Shown one piece after another: positions 26,191-57,491 of a stretch of DNA of 64,000 nt. The stretch comes from an uncultured Gammaproteobacteria bacterium (GTDB lineage: Bacteria; Patescibacteriota; Microgenomatia; Woykebacterales; RBG-16-39-9b), in NCBI GenBank assembly GCA_964360785.1, contig CAYHXX010000001.1:412264-476263 (forward strand). Reading direction: 5' to 3'. The position numbers and the translations under genes were made by a program. Positions within the stretch are counted from its first letter, which is position 1; the number at the start of each line of letters is the position of its first letter. The notes under the pieces are model-generated. The model was not told where the DNA came from and did no database searches. It saw only the letters and a list, made by a program, of their open reading frames with translations.

Positions 26191-27162
26191 ATGCCTGAAA
26201 TAATCATTTTCATCGTCGCCCTCCTTGCTGCTATTAGAGGCGCTGACTGGGTGGGAAAAGCTAGTATCTCATTTGCCAAACGTCTTGGGGTTTCCCAGTT
26301 TATCATTGGTGTAACCTTTGTCTCAATAGCCACAACTTTACCCGAACTAGCTGTCGCCTTTATTTCCGGAACCATAAACCACAATCCGCCGTTTGGTCTT
26401 GGTAATGTTTTAGGATCACCCATAATCAACCTAGGTCTCATACTGGGTTCTTTCTTTATTATCTCAAAGCACCAACCTTCCCTAGGCTATTATTCACGCG
26501 CAATCAATATTTTTATCATTGTTTCAGCTATCCTGTTGATTGCATCATTTTTTAGACCTATCGGTGGATTACTCAGTATATTTCTAATACTCTTTGGAGT
26601 AGCTTTTATAGTACTGGAGTTTCTTTTAAGTCAAAGAACTAAAAGTTTAATTGACGGTGTGGAAAACCGCTTTGATAAATTTATCAGTTTCTTTCACCTT
26701 GCTGGAAATAGAGACGTGATCTTAGAGTTTATTTTCGGAACGGCCTTGTTAATATTTGGTTGTAAGTTCTTGGTGGATTCTGGGGTTGCAATTGCCAACA
26801 ACGTTGGGGTCAACAGCTTCTTTATCTCAGCGACTGTACTCGCAGCCGGAACCTCACTACCTGAACTTGTGACTATGATCACTTCAGTAATAAAAAAACG
26901 AGATGGGATCTCAATCGGAAATTTAGTGGGAGCTTCTGTAATTGATGCCACGATTGGTGTTGGACTTGCCACAATCGCAAAACCGGCAGCTCTTACAACG
27001 GTTTTCAGTATTTTATTTTTTGTGACCATGATTGGACTTGGAATAGTCTGTTTGATAGCCCTTTGGCGACGTATAAAAATTGAGGTTATTGGGGGGATTC
27101 TAGTTGCTACGGCCTTAGCCTTTGTAATACTGCTTTCTTTACTTGAATTTACTTCTCGTTAG
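26191..27162 (+). CDS. CaCA-family Na+/Ca2+ exchanger-like membrane protein
   Basis: Two alpha-repeat regions (GNVLGSPIINLGLILG and GNLVGASVIDATIGVGL). About 10 TMs. 323 aa. Confidence 0.75.
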   Translation: MPEIIIFIVALLAAIRGADWVGKASISFAKRLGVSQFIIGVTFVSIATTLPELAVAFISGTINHNPPFGLGNVLGSPIINLGLILGSFFIISKHQPSLGYYSRAINIFIIVSAILLIASFFRPIGGLLSIFLILFGVAFIVLEFLLSQRTKSLIDGVENRFDKFISFFHLAGNRDVILEFIFGTALLIFGCKFLVDSGVAIANNVGVNSFFISATVLAAGTSLPELVTMITSVIKKRDGISIGNLVGASVIDATIGVGLATIAKPAALTTVFSILFFVTMIGLGIVCLIALWRRIKIEVIGGILVATALAFVILLSLLEFTSR

Positions 27163-28159
27163 AAAACTCAAATATATCCAATACTATAACTTGAATCATT
27201 GCCGCTGCTGGAACCGCGATTAAAGCACCAGGAAAACCGAATAAAGTTGCTCCAATCAAAAACGATAATATGGCAAACAAAGGGTTCAGACCAACAGCAG
27301 CTTGCATTATCTTTGGTACGAGTAGATTATTTTCAAGTTGCTGCACTATCACAAAAAGTACTAATACACCTACAGCAGAAACTGGGCTACCGCTGGCGAC
27401 AGTCACTAGAATTGATATCACCCCAGAAAGGATTGGTCCAATATTTGGTATAAACTCCAAGATCCCAGCCATAACTGCAAGCGGTAGGGCATAAGGAACT
27501 TTAAGCAGAGATAGACCAATGTAGGTAGCAAGTCCCACAATAAACATCAGAGCAATCTCACCTCGTACCCAATGGCCAAGCTGAACATCGACCTTGCTAG
27601 CCAAGTTTGTAACTCGTTCTTTTGGCAAAAAGGGTATTACAAAATGGAGATTCTTTTTGATCCGATCCCTCTCAAGAAGTAGATAAAAGCTTAAGACAGC
27701 GATGGTGATAAGATTGAAAACACCATTGATTGTTGTAAATACCACTCTCATCAAACTATCCAGTCCAGAAGCTAAATAGTTGGCTCCGACGCTGAAGACT
27801 TGTTTGTTCTCTATCCCAGGTACAAAACTCCCACCATATATCTCACTTATCTTCAACAAATAGTTCGGTAAAGCAATAATAAATTCTCTCAGTTGTATTA
27901 ACAAAGGCGGCAAGACTAGAAATAGTAGGAGCCCCCAAAAGATTACAGCCAATATATACGCTGATATCGCAGCTCCAACACGATTGAAACCTCGGGCTTG
28001 AAGAAAATCAGCAATCTGCGCAAAAGCGGTCATCAGGATAACAGAAGCTAGTATTAGTATGAAAACAAAGCGAAGCTGCCAAGCAACAAAAAAGGCAAGG
28101 AGAATTAGTATTGTTTTGAATATTGTACCTGTTGAGATTTCTACAACCTGTGGTTTCAC
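27149..28159 (-). CDS. AI-2E family (UPF0118/PerM-like) transporter
   Basis: Eight TMs. Conserved IGLSLLKVPYALPLAVMAGILEFIPNIGPILSGV block. Confidence 0.8.
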   Translation of the reverse strand: MKPQVVEISTGTIFKTILILLAFFVAWQLRFVFILILASVILMTAFAQIADFLQARGFNRVGAAISAYILAVIFWGLLLFLVLPPLLIQLREFIIALPNYLLKISEIYGGSFVPGIENKQVFSVGANYLASGLDSLMRVVFTTINGVFNLITIAVLSFYLLLERDRIKKNLHFVIPFLPKERVTNLASKVDVQLGHWVRGEIALMFIVGLATYIGLSLLKVPYALPLAVMAGILEFIPNIGPILSGVISILVTVASGSPVSAVGVLVLFVIVQQLENNLLVPKIMQAAVGLNPLFAILSFLIGATLFGFPGALIAVPAAAMIQVIVLDIFEFSNEK

Positions 28160-28161
28160 AA

Positions 28162-29139
28162 CTAAATTCTATCAGATTCTGAAGCTTTCAACCACTGCGA
28201 AACTAACTCGGCTACTTCGTTTTCAAGATTTTCAACCAAAATGTCATACCAGTAGATACTCTGGTCACGTTTAAACCAAGTTAGTTGTCTTCTGATATAG
28301 CCATGTAGATCAAATTTTATCCTCTGCTTAGCTTCGTTTAAACCTAAGTTTCCTTTTATATAAGCAGCAACTTGGCGATAACCAAGAGAAGTCATAGCTG
28401 GTAGATCAATCGAATAGTCTTTTAATAAGTTCTTAACTTCCTCAACAAACCCAGTCTCAAACCACTTTTCCACTCTAATGTCGTTTCGATCATACAGATT
28501 TTCTCTCTCACAAGTTAACCCAATCTTCAAAATTTCAAAAGGAACTTTGTATCTTTTTTGCAAACTACTAAAACTTTCACCAGTTTGTCGATAAACTTCC
28601 AACGCCCGAATTATTCTTCGTTTATTGTTCTTATCTACTTTCTCGAAGTAGTTGGGGTCAACTTTTTCTAGCTCCAGGAGCAAATCCTCAAGTTTCTGGT
28701 GCTCAAGTTCTTCTCGCAATCTTTGGTCTGGAGCAACTTTGGGAATTTTCAGACCCTCAGTTACTGCTTGGATATATAGCCCAGTACCGCCTACTAGTAT
28801 TGGTAACTTATTTCTAGAATGAATGTCTTTAATTTTTTCTAAGGCTAGTTGTTGATACTCAGCCAAGGAAAAGCGCTCATCTGGTTTGACTATGTCATAA
28901 AGATAAACAGGAATCTGGTCAAAAACCCATTTTCCACTTTCTTTCTGAATCTTCCCTCCTGCTTTCTGCTCACTGCTCACTGTTCCCTGACTTTCCTTCC
29001 CAGTTCCAATATCCATGCCAATATAAACCTGTCGGCTGTCAGCACTGACAATTTCCCCATCAAATTTTTTTGCGAGCGTTAGCGCGATATCAGTTTTTCC
29101 GGTTCCCGTCGGCCCACAAATAACTAGTAATTTATGCAT
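28162..29139 (-). CDS. miaA: tRNA dimethylallyltransferase
   Basis: P-loop GPTGTGKT and SADSRQVYIGMDIGTGK motifs. 325 aa. Confidence 0.9.
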   Translation of the reverse strand: MHKLLVICGPTGTGKTDIALTLAKKFDGEIVSADSRQVYIGMDIGTGKESQGTVSSEQKAGGKIQKESGKWVFDQIPVYLYDIVKPDERFSLAEYQQLALEKIKDIHSRNKLPILVGGTGLYIQAVTEGLKIPKVAPDQRLREELEHQKLEDLLLELEKVDPNYFEKVDKNNKRRIIRALEVYRQTGESFSSLQKRYKVPFEILKIGLTCERENLYDRNDIRVEKWFETGFVEEVKNLLKDYSIDLPAMTSLGYRQVAAYIKGNLGLNEAKQRIKFDLHGYIRRQLTWFKRDQSIYWYDILVENLENEVAELVSQWLKASESDRI

Positions 29140-29164
29140 GAGCGGATTTTAACATAATGAACAA

Positions 29165-29193
29165 AAAGAAAAGCAGGCTATTATAACCTGCTT
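29165..29193 (-). terminator. Intrinsic terminator (AAGCAGG/CCTGCTT stem, then TTTTCTTTTTG on minus strand); the stop codon of the upstream gene lies in the loop
   Basis: 7-bp perfect stem, 9-nt loop, T-run. Confidence 0.55.
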
Positions 29194-29558
29194 GTGGCTA
29201 CTGATCTCAATTTATCTAGAGCTCTTTTCTCTATCCGACGCACGGTTGTCGACGAACAACCCATCTCCTGGCCAGTTTTTTCTTGAGTTCTCGGCTGTCC
29301 ATCTTTGATCCCAAAGCGAAACTCGATTACTCGTCTTTCCCTTTCATCCAAGGCCTCAAGTGATGATCTTGATCTTTCTTGAGGCAGAGACCTTCGTGAA
29401 TACTCTTGACGTATTTTTTCAACATCCTCTGGTTTTCTTGATCTGAGTTCCACTAGCGGTGGGTAGCCTCCAAATATTTGCCACAACAGCCGTTCCTCCA
29501 CTATGGTCTTGTCCTTAACCTCTTGCCAATCGACCTCGGAATACGGCATTACCTTCAT
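29181..29558 (-). CDS. Sigma-70 region 4-only protein (about 125 aa). The track ORF extends to 29696, but AAGGAG lies 7 nt before the internal ATG at 29558
   Basis: Region 4.1/4.2 motifs ERERRVIEFRFGIKDGQPRTQEKTGQEMGCSSTTVRRIEKRALDKLR. No region 2 or 3 upstream. Confidence 0.55.
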   Translation of the reverse strand: MKVMPYSEVDWQEVKDKTIVEERLLWQIFGGYPPLVELRSRKPEDVEKIRQEYSRRSLPQERSRSSLEALDERERRVIEFRFGIKDGQPRTQEKTGQEMGCSSTTVRRIEKRALDKLRSVATSRL

Positions 29559-29637
29559 CGCTACTCCTTTCCCGGCGATTATAGTTTTGGTCAGATTTCT
29601 AGTCAAGTAACTAGACTTTAGTGTTAAACTGTTATCT

Positions 29638-30465
29638 ATGGCTTTCAACCCGAACACAATCTGGATATCACATACCTCTTTGAATGATTTTGACAAGTGC
29701 AGACAGCTTTATTATCTGCGCAATCTCTACCGCGATAAGAAATATGGTAATAATTTTCGCTTGCAGGTGGCTTCTCCTTTTCTGTCTTTAGGCGAAGCTG
29801 TTCATGATGCGATCGATCATTTTACTGAGCGTTATGAACCAGAACAAAGAAATATTGATCGGTTGATGTATGAATACAAAAGAGGTTGGAGTTTAAAACC
29901 AGGGAAAATTGGTGGTTTTAAAGATGAGGGTCAGGAAAAAGAATTCAAAGAACGCGGTGAAACCATGCTTGAGAGATTTATGAAAAACACTTATTTCTCC
30001 AAAGGTAATCCGATCAGAGTAAGTTTTCCCAAACTACCCTTAGTTGGTGAAGATGATGTTGTCTTGGTCGGTAACTTTGATTGGTTGGAAAAAACTCCAG
30101 AGGGTTTACATATTCTCGATTTTAAAACTGGAAAGGAAGAGGCTGAAGATTCCCTGCAACTCCCGATCTATACCATTCTTGCTAAACACGTTTTGAAAGA
30201 ACCGGTTGCTAAGGTAAGTTACTGGTACCTAGATCGTGACGACGATCCGATCGAAGCTAAAATTCCTGATTTAAGTAAAACTTTAGAGACGGTCAAAGAA
30301 AAGGCTGCCAAAATGGAGGACGCGATAAAATTCCAAGACTTCCCATGTCAGGCAGAAATCGGTTACTGCAAGCACTGTCACGAATATCACAAAGCGAGCA
30401 ACGATCAAGCTGAACATGTCCAAACCGACTTTAAACGCAAACGAGAAGTATTTTTCCTAGATTAA
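29638..30465 (+). CDS. PD-(D/E)XK nuclease-superfamily protein, Cas4/RecB-like, with a 4-Cys (FeS-type) cluster
   Basis: One N-terminal Cys (DKCRQLYY) plus the C-terminal CQAEIGYCKHC. Motifs LGEAVHDAIDHF and ILDFKTGKEE with QLPIY are PD-(D/E)XK-like. Confidence 0.6.
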   Translation: MAFNPNTIWISHTSLNDFDKCRQLYYLRNLYRDKKYGNNFRLQVASPFLSLGEAVHDAIDHFTERYEPEQRNIDRLMYEYKRGWSLKPGKIGGFKDEGQEKEFKERGETMLERFMKNTYFSKGNPIRVSFPKLPLVGEDDVVLVGNFDWLEKTPEGLHILDFKTGKEEAEDSLQLPIYTILAKHVLKEPVAKVSYWYLDRDDDPIEAKIPDLSKTLETVKEKAAKMEDAIKFQDFPCQAEIGYCKHCHEYHKASNDQAEHVQTDFKRKREVFFLD

Positions 30466-30483: not shown

Positions 30484-30512
30484 TTGACACTAGTTTTCAC
30501 CTTTGTTATAAT
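30484..30512 (+). promoter_or_regulatory. Perfect consensus sigma70 promoter (TTGACA, 17-nt spacer, TATAAT)
   Basis: TTGACActagttttcacctttgtTATAAT. Drives a ~128-nt leader that contains a hairpin plus U-tract at 30529..30584. Confidence 0.55.
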
Positions 30513-30646
30513 TTCTCCCTGTTCCAACGGCATCTAGTATTTGGACAAAACTTTTTGTTTTATCTAGCTACCAGATGCCTTTTGGTGTCCGGCATGGTTG
30601 TGAGCCCGAACAACTGTGAATGAAAAGGGCAAGGAGAAACAGTCGG

Positions 30647-30991
30647 ATGACAACAGAGGTACGGAAGATGCTCGAGACGGTGAGCCCGGACTGGGTGAGG
30701 GCGAACTTCGACGCGCTGAAGCGCGGCGGCCATGTGCTAGCCGGCACGCCACGGATGGGAGGCGACCTGATCCTGCTCAAGCCCGTTGACGCGGACGGCA
30801 CATGCTTCGAGGCGGTCAACGTCGGCCGCATCTGCGAGGAACCGACCACCGACGACGGCGTCCTGTTCGGCATCGCGACCGAGCTGTTCCCGACGGAGCC
30901 GACGGGGAACAACGGTTCGAGCGAGGTCAGGCGCAAGAAGATCCACGTCCAGCTCGCCGACGGCATCGCTGCCAACCGCTCGCGCAGGTAA
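30647..30991 (+). CDS. Hypothetical protein (114 aa) encoded in a very GC-rich island with actinobacterial-like codon usage
   Basis: AAGGAG lies 10 nt upstream. About 90% G/C at codon third positions in this frame only. Protein is MTTEVRKMLETVSPDWVRANFDALKRGGHVLAGTPRMGGDLILLKPVDADGTCFEAV.... Other ORFs in this segment are overlapping-frame artefacts of high GC. Confidence 0.5.
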   Translation: MTTEVRKMLETVSPDWVRANFDALKRGGHVLAGTPRMGGDLILLKPVDADGTCFEAVNVGRICEEPTTDDGVLFGIATELFPTEPTGNNGSSEVRRKKIHVQLADGIAANRSRR

Positions 30992-31065
30992 CCTCACAGC
31001 TCCCGGCGCCGCGAACAGTTTGCATGGTGGTAAGGCAACTTAGGTAAAAGCTATCCACCCACTTC

Positions 31066-31105
31066 GGCCGTTAACCCTCTCACCCCTTGGGAGAGTTAAC
31101 GGCCG
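31066..31105. repeat. Long GC-rich palindromic hairpin (GGCCGTTAAC-CCTCTC-loop-GAGAG-GTTAACGGCC) containing two GTTAAC sites
   Basis: A 10-bp perfect outer stem plus a 5-bp inner stem. No U-tract follows. Confidence 0.5.
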
Positions 31106-31143
31106 CCATCTTGAGCAAACAAAATTTGTTGGCTGAAGAGGAG

Positions 31144-31176
31144 AAACGACTTTTCGTATGAAGTCGTTTTTCTTTG
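31144..31176 (+). terminator. Intrinsic terminator (AAACGACTT/AAGTCGTTT stem, then TTTTCTTT)
   Basis: 9-bp perfect stem, 8-nt loop, T-run. Terminates the GC-island transcript. Confidence 0.6.
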
Positions 31177-31198: not shown

Positions 31199-31771
31199 AT
31201 GGTCTTTAAATCAAAATTTATTTTACTTCGCCATAACGAACCGAAATCTTTTCCTGGTCCATGGATCCAACCTCACAATAACCCGCTGAGCCAGAATGGA
31301 ATCGAGCAAGCAAATTTAATTTCCAAAACTTTAGAAGATGAGAAAATTAGTGCTATTTATTCCTCTCCATTTGCACGATCCTTGCAAACCGCAGATATAA
31401 TCGGCAAGAATCTAAATTTAGAAGTTATAATAAAAGAAGATTTAAAAGAAAGAGCCCAGGGTGATTTGGAAAACCAATCCTTTTCCGAAGAAAAAATAAA
31501 CAATCTTTGGGAAGAGTTTGAAAAATTTAAATCTCTGTCTCTAGAAGAGCAGTGGGTTTCAAGACCGTTTCCAGGTTTTGAAACCGACGCAGAGTTGCTA
31601 AAAAGAGCCTTAAATTGTTTAGCGGAAATTTCCCAAGAAAATATTAACAAATTAATTTTACTTGTAACTCATGCGGGTTTAATAAAAGTACTCTTGATTC
31701 ATTTCGGTATTATCTCTTTGAAAAACCGGGACGATTTTAAAATTAAATTTAATGATATTTTTGAAATCTGA
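31199..31771 (+). CDS. Histidine phosphatase (phosphoglycerate mutase-like) family protein
   Basis: N-terminal LLRHNEP (RHG-like) motif, SSPFARSLQTADII, and C-terminal VTHAGLIKVLL. Confidence 0.7.
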   Translation: MVFKSKFILLRHNEPKSFPGPWIQPHNNPLSQNGIEQANLISKTLEDEKISAIYSSPFARSLQTADIIGKNLNLEVIIKEDLKERAQGDLENQSFSEEKINNLWEEFEKFKSLSLEEQWVSRPFPGFETDAELLKRALNCLAEISQENINKLILLVTHAGLIKVLLIHFGIISLKNRDDFKIKFNDIFEI

Positions 31772-48881: not shown

Positions 48882-49478
48882 TTGCGAAGTACTCTCGTCT
48901 TCGGCGCTGCGGTGCTTACGGTCTTCATAACCGTGACAACTGCCTCAACACCGAACCCAAGAGTGGCTGGCGAAGGGGACTCAGAGTCTCTCAATTCTCA
49001 GCTGCTAACTGAAAGTGGGACGAGGACACAACCTGATTGGTTAGCTGTTTCGCCAACAGCGACGCTGTTCAGCCCAACCCCGTTTGTTTCAAGTCCTACT
49101 GCCACAGCAGTGGTAATCCTGGCGACTCCAACTATTGCACCGATTCCTGCACCAGAGCACCTGGCAGCAACAGTTGAACCTGGCAGTCCCATCGGAACTT
49201 TCCGCATTTCGTTCTATACCTGTGCGGAAAACCCGAACTGCCAAGATGGTTGGCCAACCGATGCCACCATCGCTACGGACCCGGCGCGAATCCCGCGGGG
49301 AGCTTGCGTCGTTATCGAGGGGATAGGCCAAAAGATCGTTGATGATGCTGGCGGTGGAATCAAAGGAGATCGAATCGACGTGTTCTTGCCAGCGGAACCA
49401 GGCGAAAGCATGGAATCAGTACACCAACGAGCTCTTGTACTCGGAGTAGTCTACCGAGACGTCTTTAGGTGTACATAG
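48882..49478 (+). CDS. 3D-domain (MltA-like Asp-Asp-Asp) protein with signal peptide; GC-rich, TTG start
   Basis: GGAGG 8 nt before the TTG. GACVVIEGIGQKIVDDAGGGIKGDRIDVFL is the 3D motif. Segment GC is roughly 55-60%. Confidence 0.6.
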   Translation: MRSTLVFGAAVLTVFITVTTASTPNPRVAGEGDSESLNSQLLTESGTRTQPDWLAVSPTATLFSPTPFVSSPTATAVVILATPTIAPIPAPEHLAATVEPGSPIGTFRISFYTCAENPNCQDGWPTDATIATDPARIPRGACVVIEGIGQKIVDDAGGGIKGDRIDVFLPAEPGESMESVHQRALVLGVVYRDVFRCT

Positions 49479-51957: not shown

Positions 51958-52068
51958 TTTAATTTATTCCTCCTAGCCCAATCTAAAGTAGGCTATTTAT
52001 TAATTACTTTCTTTATTCTAAACAAGCTCTGCAGCCTAACGGCTGTAGAACTCTGCAAGCTCTGCTCG

Positions 52069-52692
52069 CTATCGCGAGTAGAACTCGACAATTGCTTGCT
52101 CGTTAATTTCTGAAGCTATTTCTTCTCGCTCTGGCAAACGTGCAAGCTTACCTACCAGTGCTTTTCTTTCCACCCATTCTGGAAGTTTGATATCTTCTGA
52201 ACTAGCTTCTTTTACAAAAATAAAATTGTTGGCTTTACTATTTAAGCTTATCACGTCACCGACTTTGACTGAATATGAAGGTATATTTACCTTCTTTGCG
52301 TTTACCAGAACATGACCATGGGAAGTAAGTTGTCTTGCCTGAGCTCTAGAATAGGTCAAACCCAAACGGTAAACAATATTATCAAGTCTGCTCTCTAAAA
52401 GCTGCAACAAAGTTTCTCCAGTTGCACCTTTTTGTTTAGCTGCTTTTTGATAGTAACGACGAAACTGCTTCTCCAAAACTCCATAGATTCTTTTTACCTT
52501 CTGCTTTTCCCGAAGTTGGAATCCATAATCTGATACCTTTTTCCCAGCAATCTTTTGACCGTGTTGTCCTGGAGGAACCGCCCCTTTTTTGTTTAACGGG
52601 TGTTTTTGGGAAGCGCTGCGCTTACCCTTTAGCATCAAGTTTGTGCCTTCACGTCGGTCCAACCTAAATTTTGGTCCCGTATATCTTGCCAT
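52069..52692 (-). CDS. rpsD: 30S ribosomal protein S4
   Basis: [16 protein letters not shown]. Confidence 0.9.
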   Translation of the reverse strand: MARYTGPKFRLDRREGTNLMLKGKRSASQKHPLNKKGAVPPGQHGQKIAGKKVSDYGFQLREKQKVKRIYGVLEKQFRRYYQKAAKQKGATGETLLQLLESRLDNIVYRLGLTYSRAQARQLTSHGHVLVNAKKVNIPSYSVKVGDVISLNSKANNFIFVKEASSEDIKLPEWVERKALVGKLARLPEREEIASEINEQAIVEFYSR

Positions 52693-55269: not shown

Positions 55270-56553
55270 TTACTTGTTCAAGAACCCTTCGTAGGAACGC
55301 ATTATTAACTGAGACTCAAGCTGTTTAGTTGTTTCCAAAACTACAGAAACTACAATCAAAAGCCCAGTTCCTCCGAAAGCTACAGCACTGATCTTTGTAA
55401 TTTCCTGCAACATAAACGGCATAATAGCGATCAGCCCTAGAAACACGGCTCCTACCAAAGTTATCCTGTTTGATATAAAGGCTAGGTAGTCACCCGTCGC
55501 TTTTCCAGGCCTAATTCCAGGTATGAAACCACCGTATTTCTTGATTTCGTCAGAGACCTTGGTTGGGTTGAACACAATCGACGTGTAAAAGTAAGTAAAG
55601 ACCACAACCATTGTGAAGTAAACCGCGCTGTACAGTGGTACGTTTTGAGAAAAAGTGGAACTCCATTCTCCAATTTGTTTCAGAATTTGGTTTTGGGCAC
55701 CAGAGAGCAATTGCCCAAGAATCCCTGGTAACAGAATCAACGAAACCGCAAAGATTATTGGGATAACTCCTGCTTGATTAACACGGATAGGAAGAAAGGT
55801 TGTCTGGCCACCATAAAGCTTATTACCACGTACTCTTTTGGCATATTGAACCAAAATTTTTCGCTGCCCTTCAGTTCCAACAACTACTCCCATGATAATA
55901 GCTATACCAACCACCAACAAAGCCGCAATTGTGAGAGCGTTGTCAGCAGTTACAATAGATCCTGCCTGCCCTAAATACACTGGCAGTCTTGAGACTATTC
56001 CAACGAAAATTATTACGGATATTCCATTTCCGATACCTTGTTCTGTGATCAACTCTCCCAACCACATCAATAGCATAGTTCCTGCTGTCATAGTTGCCAT
56101 CACTGCTAGTGTTTCAAGCAGATTGAGGTTACCAACAACACCAGTACCACCTTGCTTCAGAAAGATCAAAACTGCGTAAGATTGTACAAAAGCTAAGGGA
56201 ACAGTAATGTAGCGTGTAAATTGGTTTATCTTCTGCCTGCCGTATTCGCCTTCTTTTTGCAGCTCTTCAACTTTTGGGATGATTATTCCTAACAATTGCA
56301 TAATGATCGAAGCGTTGATATATGGATTTAGACCCAATGCGATTAAGGAGAAATTAAGCAAAGTACCACCAGTAAACAAATCAAGTAGTTGGAGAAGTTG
56401 GCTGGTTGAAAAAAGGTTTGCGAGTGCATCTGGATCTACACCGGGCATCGGGATATGGGAAAGTAATCGGTATACAAAAATTACTCCTAAAGTAAAAAGT
56501 ATTTTCTTTCGCAAATCAGGAGTTCGCAGTATATCCTGAAGTGTCTTAAACAT
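55270..56553 (-). CDS. secY: Protein translocase subunit SecY
   Basis: Ten TMs. 427 aa. In the conserved position in the spc operon. Confidence 0.9.
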   Translation of the reverse strand: MFKTLQDILRTPDLRKKILFTLGVIFVYRLLSHIPMPGVDPDALANLFSTSQLLQLLDLFTGGTLLNFSLIALGLNPYINASIIMQLLGIIIPKVEELQKEGEYGRQKINQFTRYITVPLAFVQSYAVLIFLKQGGTGVVGNLNLLETLAVMATMTAGTMLLMWLGELITEQGIGNGISVIIFVGIVSRLPVYLGQAGSIVTADNALTIAALLVVGIAIIMGVVVGTEGQRKILVQYAKRVRGNKLYGGQTTFLPIRVNQAGVIPIIFAVSLILLPGILGQLLSGAQNQILKQIGEWSSTFSQNVPLYSAVYFTMVVVFTYFYTSIVFNPTKVSDEIKKYGGFIPGIRPGKATGDYLAFISNRITLVGAVFLGLIAIMPFMLQEITKISAVAFGGTGLLIVVSVVLETTKQLESQLIMRSYEGFLNK

Positions 56554-57019
56554 TTTGTTCTTCTTTCTGTTTCTCTTTAACTACGCTACCTTTTGCTTTT
56601 TCAATTGCCTTCTGGGCTGATTCTGAAACTGCAACTTTGACGGTTAGAGCCTTTGTTAGCTCACCACCCCCGACTACCTTGACCTGAGCTGCTTTATCGG
56701 TTTTCTTTAGAAGACCTTTCTTTATCAGACTTTCTTTATCTACTGTTTCACCGTTATCAAACTTTTCAAGCATTGAAAGGGTAACTGTCAAAATATTCTT
56801 TGCCAAGTTGTTTCCAACACCCCGACGGAAAGGCAATCTCTTAATCAAGGGTAATTGCCCACCTTCAAAACCTATCCTTACTTTGCCACTACCGCGAGCT
56901 TTCTGGCCTTTGTTACCCTTTCCAGAGGTCTTACCTTTTCCAGAAGATTCCCCACGCCCAACTCTTTTGGCTTCTCTTAAATTTTTTGCTTTGGCTAGTT
57001 TACTCAATTGCATCTTCAA
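56546..57019 (-). CDS. rplO: 50S ribosomal protein L15
   Basis: KRVGRGESSGKGKTSGKGNKGQKARSG. Start overlaps the rpsE stop, leaving no room for an L30 gene. Confidence 0.85.
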   Translation of the reverse strand: MKMQLSKLAKAKNLREAKRVGRGESSGKGKTSGKGNKGQKARGSGKVRIGFEGGQLPLIKRLPFRRGVGNNLAKNILTVTLSMLEKFDNGETVDKESLIKKGLLKKTDKAAQVKVVGGGELTKALTVKVAVSESAQKAIEKAKGSVVKEKQKEEQNV

Positions 57020-57491
57020 CCTCTTTTTTATCTTTATTATTTTTTACCGGACGCAGTCTTCGAAAAGCTTCGATAGTTGCATAGACATTTGAAGCTTTGT
57101 TTGACGTTCCAAGTACTTTTGAGAGAATGTCATGAATTCCTGCAGCCTCAGTCACAGCTCGAACTGCTCCTCCAGCAATGACACCAGTTCCAGCTGACGC
57201 TGGTCGTAGCATTATTTTGGCTGCTCCAACCTTGACATTGATCGGGTGAGGGATAGTGGTACCTCTCATAGGTACTGTCACAAGGTGTTTCTTCGCATAA
57301 GTAACCGCTTTTCTGATAGAAGATTGGACTTCTGGAGACTTTCCAAGCCCAACTCCAACGCGACCTTTACGGTCCCCCACGACTACAAGAACCGAAAAAC
57401 CAATCTTGTTGCCACCTTTCGTCTTCTTTGAAACCCGACTTACCTGGACAATTTTTTCTTGAAATTCGTTATCGCTATAAGAGTTCATCAT
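57000..57491 (-). CDS. rpsE: 30S ribosomal protein S5
   Basis: VSRVSKKTKGGNKIGFSVLVVVGD. Confidence 0.9.
   Translation of the reverse strand: MMNSYSDNEFQEKIVQVSRVSKKTKGGNKIGFSVLVVVGDRKGRVGVGLGKSPEVQSSIRKAVTYAKKHLVTVPMRGTTIPHPINVKVGAAKIMLRPASAGTGVIAGGAVRAVTEAAGIHDILSKVLGTSNKASNVYATIEAFRRLRPVKNNKDKKEVEDAIE

Follow-up and report, generated by a model that had tools for sequence, protein, structure and literature searches.

The 64,000-nucleotide stretch of DNA analysed here (contig CAYHXX010000001.1, positions 412,264 to 476,263; hereafter, the window) carries, at 29181..29558 on the minus strand, a small gene – referred to below as the sigma-tail gene – whose 125-residue product combines an N-terminal domain (residues ~5–55) with a sigma-70 region 4.1/4.2 (~60–120), as delineated from the translation of the open reading frame (ORF), Pfam, a family alignment, AlphaFold (AF2) and Foldseek. 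Sequence comparison indicates that the sigma-tail protein belongs to a real, rare family, probably descended from the C-terminal portion of a sigma factor of the primary (RpoD) type, and that its gene was probably inserted recently between two conserved chromosomal genes. As to its function, we lean tentatively towards a stand-alone DNA-binding transcription regulator.

The sigma-tail protein and its family

The region 4 of the sigma-tail protein is of the primary-sigma kind. Residues 67–118 match Pfam Sigma70_r4 (PF04545) with E=4e-17 (61.9 bits; cut-off 24.1), whereas the match to Sigma70_r4_2 (PF08281), typical of extracytoplasmic function (ECF) sigma factors, reaches 17.3 bits and thus stays under the gathering threshold of 25.7. 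In an AlphaFold model derived from seven sequences of the family, the predicted local distance difference test score (pLDDT) across region 4 is 81–94, and Foldseek superposes this part of the model on solved SigA region-4 chains at 0.9–1.8 Å over 59–65 residues, with 41–44% identity. The initial annotation had read a sigma-70 region 4 from the letters of 29181..29558, and both the Pfam match and the closeness of the modelled fold to SigA bear it out.

The rest of a sigma factor is missing. Pfam gives no region-2 match in the 125-residue protein; tblastn with two full RpoD proteins retrieves only the region-4 stretch, so that no region 2, intact or decayed, is found in the 64 kb; and upstream of the sigma-tail ATG there is neither a sigma-like sequence in frame nor a frameshifted sigma frame. 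Because region 2 is absent, the sigma-tail protein is unable to serve alone as a sigma factor. Compared with RpoD and SigA, then, it has the same region-4 fold, a clear homology and the region 4.1 motif RFGLxDGRxRT, but it lacks regions 1.2 and 2 and therefore any core-binding or −10-recognition module; it is also merely 125 residues long, is encoded by an accessory rather than a core gene, and has the residues that read the −35 element replaced.

The gene is nonetheless intact and, to judge from its signals, apparently expressed. A predicted near-consensus sigma-70-type promoter, TTGACT-17-TATAAT, lies at 29578..29606 on the same strand (11 of 12 consensus positions matched), followed by a Shine–Dalgarno sequence, AAGGAG, at 29564..29569, 5 nt ahead of the ATG at 29558; at the other end, a terminator-like hairpin of 10 pairs (29171..29193, minus strand), whose stem overlaps the stop codon, is followed by TTCTTTTTGT. 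The GC content at third codon positions (GC3), at 0.421, tops the values of the 41 other genes measured in the window (mean 0.344, z=2.3) and counts towards an insertion.

The breadth of the family emerges from an exhaustive HMMER search, which returned 7,800 matches at E<=1e-3, nearly all of them to the region 4 found in sigma factors. The top 150, which were inspected, include small proteins (about 110–210 residues, with a few longer fusions) that align across the whole sigma-tail query. A hidden Markov model of the N-terminal ~55 residues matched 29 proteins but 0 of 113 retrieved RpoD sequences, and when homologues are grouped at 50% identity, the two-part architecture recurs in 27 clusters or more. 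The N-terminal consensus, (WPEGTP)xxxxDLxxKTTxEERLLWxIFGxYPPxEEIxARTPEDV, is followed by a short linker of variable length and then by the region-4 consensus, LxxLxxRERxVLxLRFGLEDGRSRTxxEVGxEIGRSxRTVxRIExxALxKLRxP. R41, E74, V77 and G83 are invariant, E37 and P33 are conserved in 96% and 93% of members, respectively, and D86, G87 and S102 in at least 93%.

The family is closest to primary sigma factors: aligned with RpoD by hhalign, it reaches E=1.5e-26, and a profile search with the family alignment recovered only seven family members, with RpoD proteins directly after them. The sigma-tail region 4 is only ~40–45% identical to that of RpoD. Several family members also keep the RpoD-specific tail PxxSRRLRDYL; the protein encoded in the window has no C-terminal tail.

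These observations leave little credence for the view that the genome's own rpoD was duplicated in part and that the gene is the decaying 3' fragment. The truncation of the protein relative to any sigma factor is what such a pseudogene would show. However, the ORF is intact and equipped with promoter, Shine–Dalgarno sequence and terminator, its identity to RpoD region 4 is modest, the frameshifted sigma frame that was looked for upstream as a sign of decay is absent, and the same architecture and N-terminal motif recur in all those clusters; this conservation of the family refutes the reading. The earlier impression of a gene that looks expressed rather than decayed is thus upheld.

A word-indexed homologue search with the sigma-tail protein recovered the query alone, so that the exhaustive HMMER search was required to reveal the family. 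A scan of GTDB genomes with a narrower N-terminal motif found one locus, which points either to a rare family or to peptide patterns that vary too much for a scan of this kind. Two metagenome scans gave nothing or RpoD region-4 loci only, the N-terminal motif being present in 0 of 80 of those loci. A tblastn search of 50,697 phage GenBank records yielded no full-length member, its matches being confined to the region 4 of phage sigma factors, as were those in PHROGs. Two 14-residue matches in a viral contig scan were judged spurious. The N-terminal domain has no match in Pfam, NCBIfam or PHROG, and no published description of the family was found in the literature searched.

In a separate observation from the HMMER search, region-4-like units were found in tandem in long proteins: P0014 (1692 residues), P0015 (721), P0017 (938) and P0021 (522) hold 5–11 copies, and, with P0030 (176 residues) included, the number of repeats ranges from 2 to 11. 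The unit is ~75 residues long and has the motif RLRYGLDxGKPLT; some, such as P0030, retain a canonical TRERVRQIE recognition helix, and others are divergent.

The origin of the N-terminal domain bears on another early claim, namely that there is no room in the gene for regions 2 and 3. It holds for region 2, but only partly for region 3, since the first ~60 residues form a domain conserved across the family. In an hhalign alignment anchored by region 4, its motif is placed on region 3.0/3.1 of RpoD, and the conserved helical domain of ~55 residues may plausibly be a degenerate region 3. The homology is weak: the N-terminus on its own aligns with the same part of RpoD, but at E=0.0027 and an hhalign probability of 11%, Pfam Sigma70_r3 (PF04539) matches 0 of 19 family members, and a model of the isolated domain (pLDDT 80) finds no Foldseek match.

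The recognition helix and what it may bind

In Escherichia coli sigma-70, R584, E585, R586 and Q589 are the residues that we take to read the −35 hexamer TTGACA. Their equivalents in the sigma-tail protein are S, T, T and R, and they are replaced across the family too: where the recognition helix of primary sigmas has VTRERIRQIE, the family has RSxRTVxRIE and the window protein CSSTTVRRIE. Because none of the four is retained, competition for −35 elements, a role proposed in the initial annotation, is unlikely and now disfavoured.

The replaced positions are not the only informative ones. In the family alignment, the entropy of the helix peaks at the equivalents of R584, E585 and R588 (2.8, 2.0 and 2.1 bits, respectively), whereas the DNA-facing S102, T105 and R108, together with E110, remain conserved (0.2–0.8 bits), as do the structural V106, I109 and E110. 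Variable base-contacting positions flanked by conserved ones are the pattern expected of a helix-turn-helix (HTH) protein that still binds DNA while diversifying its target, and it is this combination of variability and conservation that favours a stand-alone DNA-binding regulator. DNA-binding HTH domains with a sigma-4 fold do exist outside sigma factors, for instance in factors of the LuxR/GerE type and in YlxM. The sigma-tail family differs from the GerE type, however, in scoring as true Sigma70_r4, with GerE matched weakly and in 2 of 19 members, and in having a conserved N-terminal domain of its own.

As a DNA-binding regulator, which remains our tentative preference, the protein could be pictured as follows. 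A lineage-specific, self-contained cassette – promoter, ribosome-binding site, ORF and terminator – would have landed between the core gene miaA and the gene of a RecB/Cas4-like repair nuclease; the region-4 recognition helix would have been re-tuned from the −35 hexamer towards other operator sequences; and the N-terminal domain would supply dimerisation or contact with a partner. The gene may, in addition, be autoregulated, as a perfect inverted repeat, TCTAGT-N6-ACTAGA (29598..29615, no strand assigned), covers the −35 hexamer of its own promoter and could be an operator. It is the sole perfect copy in the window, in which copies with up to two mismatches occur at the level of chance.

Some of the evidence counts against this picture, or at least does not distinguish it from others. 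The variable positions of the recognition helix are equally compatible with relaxed constraint on a disused surface; the inverted repeat, as a single instance, carries zero statistical weight; and the primary-sigma features retained by the family, including the C-terminal tail of some members, suit a role facing RNA polymerase equally well.

Such a role could consist in mimicking the way in which region 4 docks on RNA polymerase. The protein would bind the beta-flap tip, or another docking site of region 4, instead of or in competition with the region 4 of the resident primary sigma, and would act in trans as an inhibitor or appropriator that damps or re-targets −35-dependent transcription. 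We regard this as possible, though on the unlikely side. It agrees with the primary-sigma type of region 4 (Sigma70_r4 rather than the ECF r4_2), with the 41–44% identity to SigA region 4 in chimera structures with the flap tip, with the conserved hydrophobic framework of regions 4.1 and 4.2 and the RpoD tail of several members, and with the loss of the −35-reading residues, as if the reading of DNA were now irrelevant. On the other hand, the conserved hydrophobic residues also fold the core of the domain and hence do not discriminate, the DNA-facing S102, T105 and R108 remain conserved, the C-terminal tail is absent from the window protein, and region 4 is joined to the N-terminal domain by a short linker whose length varies.

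A probable recent insertion beside a conserved nuclease gene

The sigma-tail gene lies between two divergently oriented neighbours. On one side, miaA (28162..29139, minus strand), encoding tRNA isopentenyltransferase and recognised from Pfam IPPT (E=2.6e-72) and synteny, would be the ancestral divergent neighbour of the gene on the other side (29638..30465, plus strand), a conserved chromosomal gene for a 275-residue PD-(D/E)XK (RecB/Cas4-like) nuclease. The sigma-tail and nuclease ATGs are 79 nt apart on opposite strands, and the initial annotation had proposed this divergent pair as a potentially conserved unit.

Comparison with four related lineages – L001, L004, L015 and L016, whose nucleases fall in the same 90%-identity cluster as that of the window – tells otherwise. 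All four share the order Na/Ca exchanger, AI-2E transporters, miaA, divergent nuclease, DUF2196, HU, YmdB, RNase Y, RecX and RecA, with the starts of miaA and the nuclease gene 19–60 bp apart and the sigma-tail gene absent in 4 of 4. Judging from the boundaries of blastn blocks and from gene maps, the DNA at 29140..29621 (no strand assigned), corresponding to the promoter–gene–terminator cassette, has no counterpart in them; a three-way alignment places the extra DNA of the window at about 29159–29585, and with the blastn bounds the total comes to ~430–480 bp. At 90% identity, the nuclease cluster has 11 members and that of the sigma-tail protein two. A further difference between the window and these lineages concerns the transporters: L001, L004, L015 and L016 have two tandem AI-2E paralogues between the Na/Ca exchanger and miaA, and the window (26191–29139) has one.

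The nuclease genes of these lineages are pairwise 76–82% identical at the DNA level, the window and L016 being the top pair (81.8%). As the nuclease identities nest the window lineage among its relatives, a gain of the sigma-tail gene is more parsimonious than its repeated loss; the polarity so deduced comes from pairwise identities rather than from a rooted tree, which weakens the case for an insertion. An identical arrangement is present in L008 and L023, independent assemblies from the same groundwater population (Hainich well H52, 0.1-µm fraction). As for a target-site duplication or terminal repeats around the cassette, the sole candidate, an 11-nt imperfect direct repeat spaced by 487 nt, with one copy within miaA, was taken as chance.

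The homologues of the sigma-tail gene at seven other loci lie in seven unrelated neighbourhoods, with no neighbour in common and the nuclease in none of them. They include a DnaJ/AbiEii pair/ClpB region (L009, in which AbiEii adjoins the homologue); a stretch of small ORFs after EF-Tu and S10; a colicin V/CAP-domain protein (PF02674, PF00188) with an SNase; FtsH/TrpRS/integrase with a toxin–antitoxin pair (L014, where the pair is PIN/AbrB-like and accompanied by the integrase); a hydrolase with a MarR-like protein; and, for the remainder, small hypothetical ORFs.

A functional pair, with the sigma-tail protein controlling the divergent Cas4-like nuclease or working together with it, is therefore very improbable in our view. 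The 79-nt spacing means that the two control regions overlap, and the inverted repeat lies in between; yet the nuclease keeps miaA as its divergent neighbour in the four lineages that lack the sigma-tail gene, and is a neighbour in no other family member's locus. Absence of the pairing from related genomes, named in the initial annotation as an outcome that would refute it, is thus what these loci show. The proposed pairing is largely refuted, and the sigma-tail gene is best read, on this comparative evidence, as a recent single-gene insertion rather than a functional partner of the nuclease.

The same neighbourhoods bear on the notion that the sigma-tail protein is completed by a region-2-only partner encoded elsewhere, to form a split sigma factor. 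There is a precedent in SigO–RsoA (YvrI–YvrHa) of Bacillus subtilis, in which SigO likewise has a sigma-4 without a sigma-2 domain, the latter being provided by RsoA (PMC8103513), and a protein with region 4, perhaps a relic of region 3, and no region 2 would suit such an arrangement. But the SigO and RsoA genes are co-transcribed, the sigma-2 partner being encoded in the same operon, whereas the 64-kb window contains nothing that resembles region 2 and none of the neighbours at eight loci (the window, L008, L009, L010, L013, L014, L020 and L021) has a sigma region-2 domain; moreover, the region 4 of SigO is ECF-like and that of the sigma-tail family RpoD-like. Because no partner gene is adjacent anywhere examined, we consider a split sigma highly unlikely.

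Somewhat less improbable, but still hard to favour, is a decoy that mimics sigma in order to soak up a factor that binds region 4 – an anti-sigma of the Rsd or AsiA type, an activator or a phage factor – and thereby protects or modulates host transcription. Non-functional sigma-like domains can act in this way: PhyR, whose sigma-derived domain likewise lacks promoter and core functions, titrates the anti-sigma factor NepR (PMC8103513), and by analogy the sigma-tail protein might possibly do something similar. Toxin–antitoxin or abortive-infection genes adjoin family members in two loci (L009 and L014), both in variable regions, and the sigma-tail gene is accessory and recently gained. Nevertheless, the features of PhyR – an ECF-like sigma-2 plus sigma-4, fusion to a receiver domain, and nepR and ecfG encoded alongside – are absent here, no partner gene is conserved next to the family, PADLOC yields just a weak region-4 match to MzaA, and the phage records contain no full-length family member.

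The nuclease itself is, by curated thresholds, a member of PDDEXK_1 and not Cas4. It matches PDDEXK_1 (PF12705) with E=3e-24 (86.7 bits against a gathering threshold of 22) and a PHROG annotated as 'exonuclease' with 1.2e-15, and it carries the RecB-type motifs GxxD, DxK and QxxxY as GNFD148, LDFK163 and QLPIY178. Like iron–sulphur nucleases of the Cas4/AddB type, it combines these motifs with four cysteines in a 1+3 layout (C21, C237, C244 and C247, conserved in five orthologues). Unlike Cas4, it falls under the cut-offs of the Cas4 models (20.1 against 22.7 bits for PF01930; 22 against 65 bits for TIGR00372), has C-terminal cysteines spaced as C-X6-C-X2-C, has no CRISPR array near it in the window, and belongs in every lineage to a housekeeping block (miaA ... 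HU, YmdB, RNase Y, RecX, RecA). The spacing of the cysteines in Cas4 and AddB is unlike CX6CX2C. The early description of a Cas4-like iron–sulphur nuclease thus stands as regards the nuclease domain and the 1+3 cysteines, and not as regards Cas4 proper. A search for regularly spaced repeats found no CRISPR-like array across the 64-kb window, as had been claimed, although cas1 and cas2 were not screened for ORF by ORF.

Other features of the window and wider meaning

Two further single-gene additions lie downstream of the nuclease gene. The first is a lineage-specific cassette, 30484–31175, with a 114-residue orphan ORF (30647..30991, plus strand) that is unusually rich in GC: 66% overall and 0.63, 0.47 and 0.89 at the first, second and third codon positions, so that GC3 lies 16 standard deviations above the window, in a genome whose mean GC3 is 0.34. 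The cassette opens with a perfect TTGACA-17(TG)-TATAAT promoter (12 of 12 positions; 30484..30512), continues with a structured leader of ~127 nt (z=−2.95) and closes with a perfect hairpin with 16-bp arms (31066–31104), then a terminator. The ORF has no match in Rfam, Pfam, NCBIfam, PADLOC or PHROG. In L022, which comes from another sample, a homologue of equal length and equally high GC content occupies the same site (72% identity; dN/dS about 0.5), with the leader better conserved than the ORF (90.6% against 82% identity), and the cassette is absent in L001, L004, L015 and L016. A structured RNA was considered for this GC-rich island and rejected, with no Rfam match even at E<=1, weak folding z-scores and strong codon periodicity.

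The second is a histidine-phosphatase gene (31199..31771, plus strand; His_Phos_1, E=7.7e-31; GC3 0.29) between the terminator of the GC-rich gene and DUF2196; its presence is confined to the window lineage, with the identical L008, and it is absent in L022 and the four relatives. With this gene, the single-gene insertions within 2.6 kb around the nuclease number three.

Elsewhere in the window, a run of ribosomal protein genes and secY (L18-S5-L15-SecY) extends over 56546–57491 on the minus strand, with a 20-nt overlap of S5 and L15; because these two overlap, the run has no L30 gene. To our knowledge, bacteria of the candidate phyla radiation (CPR) lack L30, and we infer that its absence here, the origin from a 0.1-µm filter, a GC content of about 40% and a contig of 497 kb fit a CPR/Patescibacteria genome. 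The second GC peak of the window (52–60%) coincides with an ORF at 48882–49478 on the plus strand, encoding a proline/threonine-rich protein of 198 residues with a hydrophobic N-terminus. Upstream of the ribosomal protein region, two adjacent 33-nt units (52023–52088), 73% identical and each with its own short inverted repeat, lie between genes and may represent tandem terminators or a regulatory element.

For annotation, the lesson of this locus is that a divergent gene pair alone is an unsafe guide to function and that relatives need checking: the pair seen in the window arose through a recent insertion. A second point concerns the protein type. Databases contain many stand-alone region-4 proteins, most of them uncharacterised, and an ORF with region 4 alone tends to be written off as a fragment or annotated as a 'sigma-70 region 4 domain protein'. 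What sets this family apart is its conserved N-terminal domain, RpoD-like tail and re-tuned recognition helix.

What this means biologically depends on how the family acts. Should the sigma-tail protein simply be a DNA-binding regulator, the family would document the recruitment of a primary-sigma tail as a transcription factor. A broader and more doubtful scenario is that rare modules made of a region-3 relic and region 4, devoid of region 2, move between small-genome bacteria as single-gene cassettes and act in trans on RNA polymerase, either docking on the beta flap instead of the resident sigma's region 4 to re-target or throttle transcription, or serving as decoys for attackers of region 4. 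If that were true, trans-acting sigma-tail modules would be the host-encoded counterpart of phage 'sigma appropriation'; and if the family does bind RNA polymerase, or factors that bind region 4, in trans, it would mean one more level of regulation in bacteria whose transcription machinery is minimal.

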